A DNA stretch of 64,000 nucleotides from Anabaena sp. 54. Its GTDB lineage: Bacteria; Cyanobacteriota; Cyanobacteriia; Cyanobacteriales; Nostocaceae. A program made the translations under genes and the position numbers. The notes beneath the pieces were generated by a model, which worked only from the letters and a program-made list of their open reading frames with translations, searched no databases and was not told where the DNA came from. Shown one piece after another: positions 56,683 to 60,798 of the stretch. How positions within the stretch are numbered: position 1 is the first letter of the stretch; every line of letters begins with the position of its first letter. The stretch spans positions 4,306-68,305 of the forward strand of contig OMJF01000154.1 in assembly GCA_900299285.1 (NCBI GenBank), given 5' to 3'.

Positions 56683-56761
56683 AATTATTATAATAAAGAT
56701 TGTGTTTTTTATGCAACCACAGCTAAAATATCGTTAATTTCCTCAATATTTGTCACATATC
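56683..56761 (-). repeat. 79-bp direct repeat copy 1, containing TTGCAT-N18-TATAAT promoter
   Basis: Base-for-base identical to 60673-60751; 3' end on the minus strand is 22 nt upstream of the ATG at 56660. Confidence 0.93.
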
Positions 56762-56780
56762 ACTTAAAATAAAATTATGA

Positions 56781-56886
56781 TGATATACGCAAAACATAAT
56801 GTAGGTGGGGGTAATTCATAAATTACCCCCACTCAAGAATAGGGTTTATGGCTACGCAGGCTATCAGTATATCTAGAGTAAGTCTT
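56781..56886. mobile_element. degenerate AGGACTTACGCA-family MITE with 8-bp target-site duplication
   Basis: Flanked by AATTATGA at 56773-56780 and 56887-56894; ends resemble the 62279-62386 element; internal palindrome GTGGGGGTAATT-CATA-AATTACCCCCAC (56805-56832). Confidence 0.6.
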
Positions 56887-56936
56887 AATTATGAAAACAA
56901 ATTATAAATATAAAAATAAATATAAAAATATAAAAG

Positions 56937-57010
56937 GCGATCGCAATTTTATCTCTTTTTCCATTTTATCAATATATTCATTAATTTTATCATCAAATCC
57001 TAGTTTTAAA
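56937..57010 (-). pseudogene. 74-bp remnant of a paralog of the DUF1802-nuclease gene, ending at a HIP1 site
   Basis: 56937-56994 matches 52877-52934 at 53/58 nt; encodes DDKINEYIDKMEKEIKLRS versus DDQINEYIAKIEKEIKLRS. Confidence 0.8.
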
Positions 57011-57961
57011 TTAACTGGAAAATATAGGATGACATTGAGGAAGAATATCAAATAATTCAAATTCAGGTTTGACATCAAAAATATTAGGTGGTATTGATTC
57101 CATCATATCAAGTTGCTGTAGTAAATAAGATATAATAATGGGATCAATATCACTAACAATACTATGTCTTCCTTCTTCTATAGCCACTCTTGTAGTCACA
57201 CAACTACCAGCAAAAAAATCTAAAACAACTGAACCAGGATAAGATAGAGAACGAACAATGCGCTGAATTAATTGACGAGGTTTTTGAGTTGGATGTCCTA
57301 CACGCTCTTTAGAATTTCCATTTAATCTGGGTATTTTCCAAACATTAGTGGGGTTACGTCCTTTTTCAACACTTTCAGGACGTAAACGTTTATCTTTCAT
57401 ATATTCAATTTTGGTTACTTCATCAAAAGGTTCTCGTACTGCATCTAGATCAAAATAGTATTTTGAAGTCTTTCCAAACCAAGCGATTTCTTCATGACGA
57501 TTAGCAAAAAAACGATGGGCGCTCATCCCATTTGGATAATTCCAAATAATGAGATTTACCAATCGCATTTTACTATTATATCGCATATCATTTATTAATG
57601 TTAATAAGTCTCCAGAACCAGCTTCATCTTGATATTGTAATCCGCCAAAGATGACTATATTTCCTGTTTCTGACAAAACACGCTCAGATTCTCGCAACCA
57701 ACGAGAAGCCCAATTTAGATAATTTTCATGTATATCCCAATTGGCTAATTTTATGTTATATGGTGGATCACATACAATTAACTGTACTGAATTATCAGGT
57801 AAGAGAGATAATAAATCACAACAATCCATAATTAGAGAACTATGAAATGTTTTTTTCGGTTTTTCCGTTGAAATTATCTGTTCAGAAGCATGAGCTAAAC
57901 CACGCTTTTTTATAGCGTTCATTCCGATATGTTTTGTATTATTTTGGGAACGATTACCCAT
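57011..57961 (-). CDS. beta-class N6-adenine DNA methyltransferase, M.RsrI-like (predicted GAATTC)
   Basis: DPPY near the N-terminus, FFAGS near the C-terminus; blocks [64 protein letters not shown] match M.RsrI as recalled. Confidence 0.9.
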
Positions 57962-57962
57962 A

Positions 57963-60650
57963 TTAAACCTCTATATAATCTAAATCAGTTAAATGGTAAT
58001 TTTCTGTTAAAAAATCACTTCCAAAAAGTTCACGCACAATACTTAAATTGTGATTATCCAACATATTAGCATTATTTGGCCATGCTGCTTTTACTGCTTC
58101 ATATCTTGCTTGAGTTAATGTTTCATCCTCATCTTTAATAGATTTAACTAAATTGGGAATTAACATTAATTTTTTGATTGTAATATCTGAACGGTTAATT
58201 TCTATGATCCCACAAGCATTAAGTATATTTAACAAAAAAGGACATCTACGCTTTGATGCTTTCTCTGTAGCTGGTTCAATTCCTTCTTGTTCACAAAAAC
58301 GTTTCACAAAGGGTGTGGAAAAGAAATCTTGATAGATTCTCTGTTTTTCTACTGTATTATTCCTAACTATATGATACAAGAAAGCCATCATTTGCTGTAC
58401 TGCTGGTACATTTAGAAACAATTCTAAAACAATTTTTTTAGCCCGCTTATCTCGTTGTATTGTATTCATAATAAATTGATTATAATACAATTCTTGATAT
58501 ACCATTTGAGTGCTAGGTATATCACCTTCTTTTGAAGGAAAACTCAAATTAATATTTCCCAGTGCTAGTTCTAAAATTTGACGAAGTTTAAAACCTAAAG
58601 CAGTTAAAGTAGGTTTCCAATCTTGATTATCTGGTATTTTTCGATCATCTTCTAAAATTCCTAACTCCATAGCGGCTTGCAATTTATACTTTAGTTGTCG
58701 TTGATAACCACTAATGCGATCATCTTTATCTAATTTACCACGCATTCTAATATAACGTTTATCAAAATGAGTTTTATCTTGTGATGGTAAGCCAAAATAC
58801 CAAAGAATAGATAATATATGTCCTAAATGAGTACCTTGAGGATAATGATAGCTTGCTTCTGTATACTCACCTACATCTTGTAAAAATTTCAGCCATGTTT
58901 GCCAGCTTTGAGTATATAAATTACTTTTGTATTTTCCCTGTTCATCTAAATCTTGTTTTGTTGGTTTACTTTGTAATCTTTCAGCTAGTTCAAAATAAGC
59001 ATTTTTAAGATCATCTTTATCTATTCCTAAATCTTCAGCATCTTGTCTATTTAAAATTTCTTCTACTTGCTCATCAAATTTTACTTCACATCCAGTTGAA
59101 TACTCATAAGTTAATTTTTTAATACGCTTACCATTTTCTTCTTTTACCTCCTGACTACTGCTTTTAGCTAAATATTTTCGTACTTGATTAGCGCGTTTAT
59201 AATTACCAATAAAGTCTAGTATTCTCACTCTATCTTTACCGGTACATAAGCGTAAACCTCTACCTAACTGTTGCAAGAAAACAGTTTTTGATTCTGTTGG
59301 ACGCAAGAAAAGAAGTACACGAATATTAGGAAAGTCAATACCTTCATTAAATAAATCTACTGTAAATACTACTTGATAATTATTATTACGAAAACTCTCA
59401 ATTAAATTATCGCGGTTTGCACTACGAGAATGTATTGCAATTGCTTTTACTCCATTGTCATTAAAAAACTCAGCCATTCTATCTGCGTGTTCTATGGAAA
59501 CACAAAAACCAATGGCTTTATCCCCTGTACCTTTATCTTCATCTAAATATGCTTTTAATATAGCTTCATTTCTTTCAGGAATAATTAAGAGTCTTTCCAA
59601 ATCATCAACTCGATAACTTTGATTTTGATAACGGATTTTAGAATAATCAACATTATCGGTTAATCCTATATAAGTATAAGGAACTAACAAACCACGTTCA
59701 ATTACTTCATTGAGAGAAATTTCATAAATATTATTATATTCAAATAATTCAAATATATCTTTTCTATCAGTTCTATCTGGGGTTGCTGTCATTCCCAGCA
59801 TAAATTTTGGTTGGAAGTATTTTAGTAATGATTGATATGATAATGTTTGACTATGATGAACTTCATCAATAACAATATAATCAAAGTAATCACGAGTAAA
59901 CTTTGCTAATTCTTCTGATTGTCTTAATGTATCTTTACTAGCAAATAAAACATCACATTCTTTTTCTCTATACTTTTCTTCACCTGTTAGTTTTCCTTCA
60001 TTAAGATTTCCCCACACTTTACGGTATGCCTCTATACTTTGTGTTAATATATCTAGCCTATGAACTACAAATAAAACACGGCCACCCATGCGTTTTGCAT
60101 CTAAAGCAGATAAAATAGTTTTACCTGTACCAGTGGGCATAATGATTATACCTTTATTCCACTTTCTAACCTGACGTACATATTCTAAGCTATGTAATAC
60201 TTCATTCTGAATTTGGTTAGGTTCAAGACTATAATTATTCAGTAAATTAGAAGCATATTTAGCAATTAAATTATGAATACTATCTTTAACTATTTCTCTC
60301 CATCTTGCAGATTGTAATTGATTATATGAAAAACGTAGTAGTTTATAACCTCGTCCCAATATCTCATTTTGACGGAATAAATTATCATCAAATTGTTCAT
60401 CTGGTATGATTCCCTCAGCGTGATAACTTTCTCCATTGACTTCAAAGGCAATTTTTACATTATTCTCATCATCGTGATATGCAAAATCAATACGTCTGTT
60501 TTTACCGGTGCTATCAATAAAAACATACTGTGGCTCTATTTTACCAATATTTGATTGTAGTAAGGGATAAAGAAACTCCTCTATAAATAAGCGTTCAGAT
60601 GCTTGAGTTATACGAGAACCATATTTTCCGTAGTATTCTTCAATGTTCAT
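57963..60650 (-). CDS. Vsr/DUF559-like nuclease fused to SF2 (ResIII-type) helicase and unknown C-terminal domain
   Basis: RRIDFAY...[11 protein letters not shown]...[17 protein letters not shown]; helicase motifs [36 protein letters not shown]. Confidence 0.88.
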
Positions 60651-60672
60651 AATTTATTTTTAATTTATACTG

Positions 60673-60751
60673 AATTATTATAATAAAGATTGTGTTTTTT
60701 ATGCAACCACAGCTAAAATATCGTTAATTTCCTCAATATTTGTCACATATC
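60673..60751 (-). repeat. 79-bp direct repeat copy 2, containing TTGCAT-N18-TATAAT promoter
   Basis: Identical to 56683-56761; 22 nt upstream of the ATG at 60650. Confidence 0.93.
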
Positions 60752-60798
60752 GCTGAAAATTATGAAAACAACAACTAACCGTAAATATACGTAAATAT

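Follow-up and report, generated by a model that had tools for sequence, protein, structure and literature searches.

A restriction-modification-like gene pair between two copies of the predicted promoter region downstream of ndhO in Anabaena sp. 54

Furuta, Abe and Kobayashi (2010; PMC2853133) described the insertion of restriction-modification (RM) units with long target duplication and allelic substitution at one locus, including a Microcystis case, and discussed cycles of insertion, amplification and release of RM units lying between long repeats. How such insertions come to duplicate a long target has awaited an explanation since 2000. In bacteria, the duplicated tuf, rRNA and psbA genes undergo concerted evolution by gene conversion. 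The locus described here lies in a 64,000-nt stretch of Anabaena sp. 54 DNA (contig OMJF01000154.1; hereafter the window), in which a helicase-methyltransferase gene pair and a three-gene operon are each headed by a copy of the same leader (Table 1). The repeat is probably a long target duplication of the region downstream of ndhO, resulting from an RM-like insertion, recombination between alleles and later gene conversion.

Table 1. Features of the ndhO-NADAR interval, with positions in the window
Feature	Position	Strand	Basis or remark
NADAR gene, convergent downstream flank	52174..52644	+	Pfam NADAR 5e-41
494-aa DUF1802 protein	52641..54125	-	Pfam DUF1802 2e-20; resident counterpart of the remnant at 52870-52934
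613-aa P-loop NTPase, weakly KAP/AAA_16-like	54112..55953	-	Pfam AAA_16 and KAP_NTPase under cut-offs
227-aa protein, predicted winged-helix, operon gene 1	55977..56660	-	AF2 and Foldseek
Leader copy 1, heads wHTH operon	56679..56780	-	Exact block 56683-56761; upstream continuation 56887-56900
-10 box	56692-56687 (copy 1), 60682-60677 (copy 2)	-	TATAAT, perfect
-35 box	56716-56711 (copy 1), 60706-60701 (copy 2)	-	TTGCAT, 3/6 consensus positions
Degenerate MITE in upstream part of leader copy 1	56781..56886	.	106 nt, flanked by AATTATGA
AT-rich junction, remnant to duplicated ndhO-downstream spacer	56901..56929	.	Same, with indels, in L101, L084 and L086
65-nt piece of DUF1802 gene 3' part (remnant)	56930..56994	-	Directly behind MTase stop; BLAST against 52870-52934
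316-aa N6/N4 DNA methyltransferase, cassette gene 2	57011..57961	-	Pfam N6_N4_Mtase 3.5e-57; PADLOC MTase_II 5.9e-136
895-aa protein, restriction-type component	57963..60650	-	Pfam ResIII 6e-35, Helicase_C 4e-16; PADLOC mREase_IV 1.2e-76
Leader copy 2, heads helicase gene	60669..60771	-	Exact block 60673-60751; ndhO-downstream intergenic region
GC-rich hairpin CCCCGAC...GTCGGGG after ndhO, terminator-like	60801..60825	-	Read from sequence
ndhO, conserved core gene, upstream flank	60849..61064	-	Pfam NdhO E 3.5e-35; in 80/80 related loci

The two leader copies share a block of 79 nt with no differences (0/79), embedded in 92 nt of homology at 97% identity (56679-56770 and 60669-60760), and start 3990 bp apart. 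A search of the window allowing up to three mismatches returned two matches to the 79-mer, and 100 shuffles returned none, bearing out the exact direct repeats reported in a first-pass annotation of this DNA. That annotation had also proposed a wider homology once a MITE in copy 1 is removed; with the element taken out, the homology indeed extended to approximately 115 bp, and AATTATGAAAACAA is present twice (56887-56900 and 60758-60771). The other elements it had read in each copy, namely a minus-strand TTGCAT-N18-TATAAT, a 12/15 palindrome and a distance of 22 nt between the end of the repeat and the ATG of a minus-strand gene (56660 and 60650), were all present. A 21-nt match between 56963-56983 and 62038-62058 was judged to be due to chance.

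The same annotation had named an assembly artefact as a threat to the repeat. In such a case two strains, or a chromosome and a 3990-bp episome, might have been joined via the common 79-mer. The 79-mer exceeds k in the unitig graph, a chromosome plus a circle would also fit the graph when sequencing run X1 is taken on its own, and relatives with the order ndhO-leader-wHTH exist. However, the 79-mer unitig in X1 had a depth of 36.9x against 18.3-18.9x for the three unique flanks (1:2:1:1), so that the three unique segments are equal in depth and the repeat is double. The identical map was obtained in six independent long assemblies, and each junction was crossed by independent contigs of other samples (L084, L086, L087, L104, L101, L085, and L004). 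Among other-sample contigs with differing leader copies, L084, L086, L087, and X25 cross MITE-leader-wHTH, and L004, L085, and X27 cross ndhO-leader-helicase. We regard an artefact as extremely improbable.

In at least 50 of the 80 Nostocales genomes, the wHTH-ATPase-DUF1802 operon behind leader copy 1 follows ndhO at a distance of 1-3 kb; to judge from this synteny, it is an old resident of the locus. The AF2 model of the 227-aa protein had a pLDDT of 77.5, and its top Foldseek matches were winged-helix proteins of the MarR/ArsR/TubR/ScpB types (E 3e-3 to 2e-2); the protein had no match in Pfam, PADLOC or NCBIfam. Its family comprises 311 proteins, with Nostocales only among the matches listed. 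The 613-aa NTPase matched an Sll1717-type ATPase weakly in NCBIfam and falls into two deep allele classes within Dolichospermum. The 494-aa protein has an ASCH/PUA-like N-domain (Foldseek ASCH prob 1.0, E 4e-3) and is a putative PD-(D/E)xK nuclease with D295, E307, and K309 invariant in 30 sequences; a homolog, P0349, has PF04471. None of the three operon proteins matched a catalogued anti-phage system in PADLOC v2, and sequence comparison with PDB, PADLOC, and NCBIfam gave no useful match. The locus draws attention to this uncharacterised, Nostocales-wide operon with its predicted reader-plus-nuclease architecture.

Comparison of the interval from NADAR to ndhO across relatives, the check suggested in the first-pass annotation, showed that the gene content behind the leader varies. 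The leader is single-copy, 92 nt after ndhO, in L001-L004, L006, and L092-L094 (Dolichospermum/Anabaena). It is followed by the wHTH operon only in L001-L003, L006, and L092-L094, and by the helicase and methyltransferase genes only, then the DUF1802 3' end and NADAR, in L004. The stacked allele, with both modules, was found in the window (L103), L084, L086, L087, L101, L104, X5, and X25, and decayed versions of the locus also occur. Across the 80 genomes, the contigs looked up and the JGI metagenome scan, the leader was followed by no more than two cassette types; the JGI scan, using the 30-nt invariant leader core as the query, matched two contigs, both with known cassette types. The earlier picture of promoter-headed cassettes at a hotspot holds with respect to the variable content but not as a general platform, since the types are only two and the leader is native to the resident operon.

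Judging from sequence conservation, the leader is the native predicted promoter region of the wHTH-ATPase-DUF1802 operon. A -10-like box precedes the wHTH start codon by the same distance in 41 genomes of the Nostocales set with the operon, the -35 and -10 hexamers are unchanged across all aligned leader copies, and all copies examined show the same 30-nt core, AAATTAACG...GGTTGCAT. A consensus promoter scan did not list the leader site, and the hairpin after ndhO, a dispersed short repeat common to many unrelated metagenome contigs, was not listed by the terminator scan. The scan has no discriminating value here because matches occur at chance density (45 promoter-like matches found versus 44.9 expected in this AT-rich DNA). 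The homology of the copies stops right after TATAATAATT[C/T]AGT, and two types of 5'UTR, of 18 nt each, follow the common AGT. Contigs of public metatranscriptomes, which are unstranded and may represent DNA or read-through from ndhO or the methyltransferase gene, cross ndhO-leader-helicase and MTase-MITE-leader-wHTH. We presume that both leader copies fire as promoters. An Rfam scan of positions 52000-61500 gave no credible match.

The 895-aa protein of the inserted cassette consists of a nuclease-like N-terminus, a ResIII/DEAD helicase core, and an HNH_repeat; the REase-like match of the N-terminus is weak (MTES_1575, 2e-3) and the nuclease role is putative. Its homologs, with 60-70% identity, occur across phyla, always followed by a methyltransferase. 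We propose that the helicase/nuclease and methyltransferase form an RM-like pair that was horizontally acquired. The "defence" label formerly attached to both modules is reasonable for this pair on the basis of the PADLOC matches, but for the wHTH operon it draws on fold-level similarity only. The cassettes are 97-100% identical to those in genomes whose ndhO flank is approximately 92% identical, and the drop in identity begins within the leader. The L081 cassette is 90% identical and starts at the same first base, 18 nt before the ATG, but is preceded by a fragment of the wHTH gene. On its right side, the cassette joins the DUF1802 gene at almost the same point in L004 and L081 as in the window, L081 retaining approximately 25 nt more. 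In bloom-forming Dolichospermum the locus is polymorphic, the helicase/nuclease gene having been repeatedly lost and the methyltransferase retained.

The DUF1802 remnant behind the methyltransferase gene and its resident counterpart constitute a second direct-repeat pair (89% identity, E 4e-19 in BLAST), which is absent from the first-pass annotation. A HIP1 site, GCGATCGC, occupies 56937-56944, where the DUF1802 homology of the remnant stops; given the length of the remnant, such a breakpoint would fall at HIP1 by coincidence in roughly 7% of cases. The 65-nt remnant suggests two steps: replacement of the operon by the cassette, and subsequent recombination of the resulting allele with an intact one. 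The AATTATGA flanks of the MITE lie at 56773-56780 and 56887-56894, and other members of the family are located at 62279-62386, with perfect 13-nt terminal inverted repeats, and at 11989-12043. Copy 2 and all single-copy relatives lack the element, and all other stacked alleles have it.

These features can be accommodated by the following series of events, in which both the order and the recombination mechanism are presumptive. An RM-like pair would have entered the operon in a Dolichospermum ancestor and replaced most of it, sparing only the ~300 nt at the 3' end of the DUF1802 gene. On the line of descent to the window, fusion of the cassette to the resident promoter would then have followed, approximately 8 nt past the -10 box, roughly at +1, giving a substitution allele such as that represented by L004. 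Recombination of this allele with an intact version of the locus may have taken place through an illegitimate join between a site at or next to HIP1 in the DUF1802 remnant and the spacer after the ndhO hairpin. The expected product, ndhO-leader-helicase-MTase-65-nt remnant-spacer-leader-wHTH operon, places the RM pair between two copies of the promoter region, one for each module. The MITE would have landed upstream of copy 1 later, and homologous recombination in the flanks may have carried the whole region between strains. Finally, a conversion tract of 60-79 nt would have made the promoter copies identical in the lineage of the window. An identical map would result if the operon had first been duplicated in tandem and its upstream copy then replaced, but this route requires more events. 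Once present, the repeats could delete or amplify the cassette.

The identity of the two copies had been read as a hint of selection or conversion, and the evidence supports conversion. Both copies in the window have a private variant, GAGGAAATT, which is found elsewhere in one contig only, L104, from the window's own lineage, and copy-specific differences bound the identical block on both sides within still-homologous sequence (CAGC/AAGT; C/T). The private substitution in both copies and the bounded block favour a short tract of gene conversion over selection. The pair L084/L085, from one metagenome, shares a different private variant, AAGAAAC; this half of the argument for concerted evolution is softer because the two contigs perhaps belong to different genomes and near-identical repeats can be collapsed in assembly. 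Copies that differ from each other are retained in the L101/L089 lineage.

Purifying selection would keep the copies identical if they formed a shared operator or promoter through which one regulator, for example the wHTH protein binding the palindrome, co-controlled both modules. Both operons are headed by the identical sequence with an 18-nt 5'UTR after the common AGT, the first gene product has a predicted winged-helix fold, and the 30-nt core is constant in all copies examined. Selection, however, cannot introduce one and the same new substitution into the two copies, as seen with the private variants of the window and of L084/L085, and the difference between the L101/L089 copies is also at odds with it. 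Furthermore, the leader is polymorphic among strains at six or more sites, two of them palindrome positions, and the palindrome is weaker in all relatives (8-10/15); it is a poor operator candidate because it is not conserved. In Aphanizomenon-type genomes the same operon retains the leader from the -10 box onward only, with unrelated sequence upstream. We consider selection an unlikely cause of the identity.

Perfect repeats are ordinarily expected to be young, and the 0/79 differences might simply reflect an independent, very recent duplication in the lineage of the window, with no need for conversion. The alignments speak against such recency. All stacked alleles have the same junction and MITE at a divergence of up to 3.4%, with identical breakpoints across lineages; the remnant-HIP1-spacer-MITE-leader junction in L101, L084, L086, and X25, from other studies and years, is the same although these are 2.3-3.4% divergent from the window across kilobases, indicating that stacking and MITE insertion are older than those splits. 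The sister repeat pair from the same rearrangement is only 89% identical, and differences occur on both sides of the identical block inside the duplicated segment. A recent duplication is improbable on these grounds, and gene conversion within an older duplication is preferred.

The leader might alternatively be the attachment or expression site of an integron-like or other site-specific system that captures defence cassettes and releases them as circles. Fusion of the cassette to the promoter at about +1, the flanking direct repeats, the strain-variable content, and the release cycles discussed for repeat-flanked RM units by Furuta et al. (PMC2853133) would fit such a system. In opposition to this, none of the ORFs between 52000 and 62300 was found to encode an integrase or recombinase domain, the survey of relatives and metagenomes gave two cassette types only, the left junction of the cassette in L081 differs from that in the window and L004, and the cassette ends have no conserved motif. 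The source-population contigs (X1 and X4) contained neither a circle nor an empty-site joint, although contigs drop rare forms. We judge a site-specific system very unlikely. It is also doubtful that the ndhO-downstream promoter acts as a reusable landing pad by means of +1 fusion, HIP1-aided unequal recombination between chromosome copies, and copies maintained by conversion. If it did, the cassette could be looped out, amplified or re-inserted, allowing recombinase-free shuffling of the defence repertoire in polyploid cyanobacteria.

Comparison with described systems places the locus closest to RM units inserted with duplication of a long target (Nobusato et al. 2000; PMC2853133). Furuta et al. 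look for R and M homologs in an insert of less than 20 kb that lacks mobility genes and is flanked by repeats of more than 30 bp aligning to a single copy in an insert-free genome. Here, the few-kb unit encodes R and M homologs (the 895-aa protein, with its putative nuclease role, and the 316-aa protein) and no mobility genes, only two ORFs, the remnant and the MITE lying between the copies. The direct repeats (79 nt exact, 92 nt at 97%) match one single-copy sequence in insert-free relatives (L001, L002, L003, L006, and L092-L094). The locus differs from the described cases in three respects: the target is a promoter region, a copy of which is kept by both the insert and the displaced operon; the insert bears a 65-nt piece of the last gene of the resident operon; and the repeats are in concerted evolution. 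The second of these indicates that the insert came from a substitution allele at this locus and suggests that the mechanism was an unequal exchange between alleles.

Defence islands and core-gene hotspots resemble the locus in the variable, defence-type content between ndhO and NADAR and in the break of identity at the edge of the cassette region (97-100% for the cassettes, ~92% for the flanks), but here there are only two modules, one of which is an ancient syntenic Nostocales resident and not transient cargo. An integron platform (Pc, attI, attC) likewise has cassettes behind a resident promoter, and a circular excised form is conceivable; in contrast, integrase, attI and attC are all lacking from the present locus, the modules are each headed by a separate promoter copy, and the junctions vary by lineage. 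As in gene-converted repeats, the copies within a genome share private variants and are closer to each other than to their orthologues, within a short tract with unconverted flanks. Unlike those, the tract is a non-coding promoter segment of at most 79 nt, with copies 4 kb apart, its conversion is lineage-specific, and some stacked lineages keep unlike copies.

The locus adds a real, well-documented case to a known class of genome rearrangement and does not amount to a new type of system. Because the duplicated target is a predicted promoter, both the newcomer and the resident operon would remain expressible, which may explain the persistence of the stacked allele in several lake populations. 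It provides a base-resolved natural example of an RM unit arriving between long direct repeats with a piece of the displaced gene still aboard and, as the mechanism behind this class of insertion, suggests that a substitution allele recombined unequally with an intact one.

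The segments at 56683-56761 and 60673-60751 are identical at 79 of 79 nt, and ungapped homology between the two leader copies extends over 92 nt at 97% identity (56679-56770 and 60669-60760). The 14-mer AATTATGAAAACAA is found twice, at 56887-56900 and 60758-60771. No third copy of the repeat was present in the window at up to three mismatches, nor in 100 dinucleotide-preserving shuffles. Both copies carry TTGCAT-N18-TATAAT on the minus strand, and the exact block of each stops 22 nt short of an ATG. The first-pass annotation had described these features and the MITE accurately, and all of them were recovered here. 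The -35 hexamer agrees with the consensus at only three positions, and this AT-rich stretch contains about as many promoter-like strings as chance predicts (45 found against 44.9 expected). The 12/15 palindrome of the leader is weaker in all relatives and is therefore not a strong operator candidate.

Features of the duplicated-leader locus, in order of transcription
Feature	Position	Strand	Place
ndhO	61064-60849	-	First, followed by leader copy 2
895-aa helicase-type protein	60650-57963	-	After leader copy 2
316-aa DNA methyltransferase	57961-57011	-	After helicase gene, followed by leader copy 1
MITE-family insert (106 nt)	56781-56886		Between leader copy 1 and its 14-mer, flanked by AATTATGA
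227-aa protein (wHTH)	56660-55977	-	After leader copy 1
613-aa P-loop ATPase	55953-54112	-	Second operon gene
494-aa DUF1802 protein	54125-52641	-	Third operon gene
NADAR gene		+	Convergent, downstream of DUF1802 gene

Other repeats were noted nearby. The same MITE family recurs at 62279-62386, a copy with a hairpin between perfect 13-nt terminal inverted repeats (AGGACTTACGCAA), and at 11989-12043. A GC-rich hairpin 3' of ndhO (60801-60825) occurs once in the window, and its sequence is common to many unrelated high-depth metagenome and metatranscriptome contigs; it is probably a dispersed short repeat. In the interval 52048-52156, between NADAR and an aldose-epimerase gene, depth is very high in every run and many contigs branch off, some with GGGAACA-type heptamer repeats; this is a repeat element or short tandem repeat region.

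An assembly artefact at the repeat, the outcome that would have undone the earlier proposal, was ruled out by read depth and by junction-spanning contigs elsewhere. In X1, the sequencing run containing the whole region, de Bruijn unitig depths were 18.9x (52127-56712), 18.3x (56732-60702) and 18.6x (from 60722 onward) versus 36.9x for the unitig with the 79-mer alone, showing that one genome holds two leader copies. The window is identical to L103, a 164-kb SPAdes contig, and the map was repeated in five more assemblies. The copies are slightly unlike in other samples, where contigs cross each junction uninterrupted: the MITE-leader-wHTH junction is crossed by L084, L086, L087, L104 and a 4.7-kb contig of run X25, and the ndhO-leader-helicase junction by L004, L085 and run X27, while L101 reaches from copy 2 across both cassette genes and the MITE into copy 1.

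A scan with NdhO, using one genome per species, gave 80 Nostocales loci, the closest being from Dolichospermum/Anabaena. A single leader lies 92 nt past the ndhO stop codon in L001-L004, L006 and L092-L094, directly before the wHTH gene in most of them. At least 50 of the 80 genomes, those of Nostoc, Cylindrospermum and Rivularia among them, have the wHTH-ATPase-DUF1802 operon 1-3 kb downstream of ndhO, usually with mdh and a small gene intervening; in 41 of those genomes a -10-like hexamer lies about as far from the start codon of the wHTH gene, the remaining upstream sequence having diverged. The conserved neighbourhood and the retained hexamer position led us to regard the leader as a putative native promoter region that belongs to this old resident operon and that, in the Dolichospermum group, became joined to the post-ndhO spacer. 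In Aphanizomenon-type genomes (L095-L100, about 5830-6001), the operon, with a 96% identical wHTH gene, occupies a different locus, with an AI-2E transporter gene on one side and FAD-oxidoreductase/frr/pyrH on the other. There the leader becomes recognisable exactly at TATAAT, the -10 box, so the 60 nt of the repeat upstream of it are flank sequence and not part of the operon; the promoter is thus the site of another rearrangement breakpoint. The earlier picture of stacked, promoter-headed cassettes was right in outline as to stacking, but the leader appears to be a duplicated native promoter rather than a general platform.

The 895-aa protein matches ResIII, DEAD and Helicase_C models, an HNH-associated repeat and, weakly at its N-terminus, a REase-like domain; PADLOC assigned it to mREase_IV (1.2e-76). 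For the 316-aa protein the matches are N6_N4_Mtase and, at 5.9e-136, a type II methyltransferase model. Homologs of the helicase protein in distant phyla are 60-70% identical and agree with it in length (~890 aa) and in Pfam domain set. A methyltransferase gene directly follows in every context examined, one of which adjoins integrase and other mobile-element genes. The pair is a horizontally mobile, two-gene RM-like cassette. Of the two modules annotated as defence, the label is reasonable for the cassette, which is RM-like by PADLOC and Pfam, and tentative for the wHTH operon. In other genomes and populations the helicase/nuclease gene (57963-60650) has internal deletions that are not alike: 58281>60635 in L004, 58041>60610 in L085 and run X5, 58658>59787 in X5, and 58152>59596 in run X9. 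The methyltransferase is intact in L004, and the parts covered in L085 and X5 match. It looks as if the restriction component has been lost repeatedly, probably leaving an orphan methylase behind.

As the first-pass annotation had anticipated, gene content behind the same leader varies among relatives: operon alone, cassette alone, or both stacked. The operon stands alone in L001-L003, L006 and L092-L094. L004, which has the cassette alone, reads ndhO, leader, a helicase gene cut to its ends, an intact methyltransferase gene, the 3'-terminal ~300 nt of DUF1802, and NADAR. The two 5'UTR types part exactly after TATAATAATT[C/T]AGT, about 8 nt past the -10 box, and both have 18 nt from the divergence point to ATG. 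In L081 a 90%-identical cassette starts at the same base, preceded by a wHTH gene fragment and 56 nt of other sequence, so at least two left junctions exist, the promoter fusion being one. On the right, the window, L004 and L081 have nearly the same junction into the DUF1802 gene, near 52957, with about 25 extra nt retained in L081. Behind the methyltransferase stop codon lies a 65-nt piece of the DUF1802 gene (56930-56994), 89% identical to 52870-52934 (E 4e-19), a second direct-repeat pair that the first-pass annotation had overlooked. Homology of this remnant stops at a HIP1 octamer, GCGATCGC (56937-56944; resident HIP1, 52877-52884), after which come an AT-rich stretch and the duplicated ndhO-downstream spacer. 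These two are the only HIP1 sites in 52000-61500; the whole window has 16.

The ndhO-fpg flank of the window is about 92% identical to L001-L004, and its wHTH region 96-97% identical to L002, L003 and L006; against L004, the methyltransferase is 97.6% and the NADAR side 98.8% identical. Cassette DNA is 97-100% identical to that of genomes with only ~92% identity in the adjacent core flank (60610-61468 versus L085; 52176-58281 versus L004). Aligned with L085, the window matches at all of 745 cassette positions and differs once within the first 41 nt of the helicase gene; differences then set in within the leader and recur at ~1 per 11 nt through ndhO. This switch inside leader copy 2 indicates recent import of the cassette region through homologous recombination that crossed over at the leader. 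The alleles coexist in lake metagenomes; depth in X5 is 600-1200x for the wHTH region and ndhO flank and 12-90x for the cassette.

The remnant-HIP1-spacer-MITE-leader junction is common to all stacked alleles despite 2.3% (X25 contig) to 3.4% (L101) divergence from the window, so stacking and MITE insertion predate these splits. The leader is polymorphic among strains at six or more sites. Both window copies have GAGGAAATT, every other lineage GAGAAAATT; outside the window, GAGGAAATT occurs only in L104, a second contig of the same lineage. At the edges of the 79-nt block, copy-specific differences lie within still-homologous sequence (CAGC versus AAGT upstream, C versus T past the -10). L084 (copy 1) and L085 (copy 2), found in a single JGI metagenome, agree at all of 92 nt and carry another private variant, AAGAAAC, at which the copies are still unlike in the L101/L089 sample and X5; these two contigs are not provably one genome and assemblers can collapse repeats, a problem from which the window pair is free. 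Derived variants common to both copies, together with unconverted flanks and lineages, are typical of gene conversion over short tracts. Such a combination is produced neither by recency nor by purifying selection; of the "selection or conversion" offered earlier for the perfect identity, conversion is the part that we retain.

Both copies are putative promoters, given that the -10 keeps its position, the hexamers do not vary and the cassette is fused to the leader near +1. Metatranscriptome contigs cover both modules, and these unstranded contigs run through intergenic regions too. If the two copies recombined, deletion of the cassette would follow, and amplification might; alleles with one leader do occur, though they look ancestral, and contigs would not reveal rare forms.

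The resident operon (52641-56660, minus strand; also L005, L019, L022 and about 50 other loci) is Nostocales-wide yet fast-evolving and has no described function. It gave no PADLOC match and no credible PDB sequence match, and besides DUF1802 only sub-threshold ATPase matches in NCBIfam/Pfam. The 227-aa protein matched no family; its model (pLDDT 77.5) matched only winged-helix regulators, with weak E-values. In the model of the DUF1802 protein (pLDDT 84), the N-domain resembles ASCH/PUA-like folds, beside a winged helix and a putative PD-(D/E)xK nuclease; the D295/E307/K309 triad is invariant in 30 sequences, and one homolog bears the Mrr catalytic domain PF04471. With a putative reader and nuclease, an NTPase and a winged-helix partner, the operon resembles modification-dependent restriction, a model-based lead to its possible function. 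In the region 54112-56231 (L006 10843-13708), the ATPase forms two very deep allele classes within Dolichospermum (identity 28% between the window and L006, 61% between L006 and L005), with a mosaic breakpoint at window 56231 common to L003, L006, L084 and X25; the conserved ends and swapped middle resemble specificity-type polymorphism.

The simplest reading of these sequences is a two-step history. The cassette would first have taken the place of most of the resident operon, and the resulting substitution allele, of the L004/L081 type, would then have recombined with an intact allele. The second join would be illegitimate, lying in the gene remnant of one partner, at HIP1 or next to it, and in the spacer past the ndhO hairpin on the other, and its product would carry the leader twice, one ahead of each module. 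Had the operon instead been duplicated in tandem and its upstream copy then been replaced, each module would likewise be preceded by a leader, but this route requires more steps than the two-step history. A study of HIP1 and natural transformation (bioRxiv 10.1101/2024.09.10.611283) makes the HIP1 breakpoint noteworthy; given the remnant length, such a breakpoint could arise by chance at roughly 7%.

The repeat is real and its structure fully explained, and the kind of rearrangement is already known. What is instructive here is the promoter as duplicated target, the tell-tale gene remnant and the copies evolving in concert. Compared with an intact genome, the locus reads as the insertion of an RM unit of 3.9 kb that duplicated about 115 bp of its target. 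The criteria for insertion with target duplication (PMC2853133, which also lists a cyanobacterial case) are R and M homologs within an insert of <20 kb lacking mobility genes, and repeats of >30 bp that align to one copy in an insert-free genome; the insert in the window shares these features and thus resembles the insertions described there.
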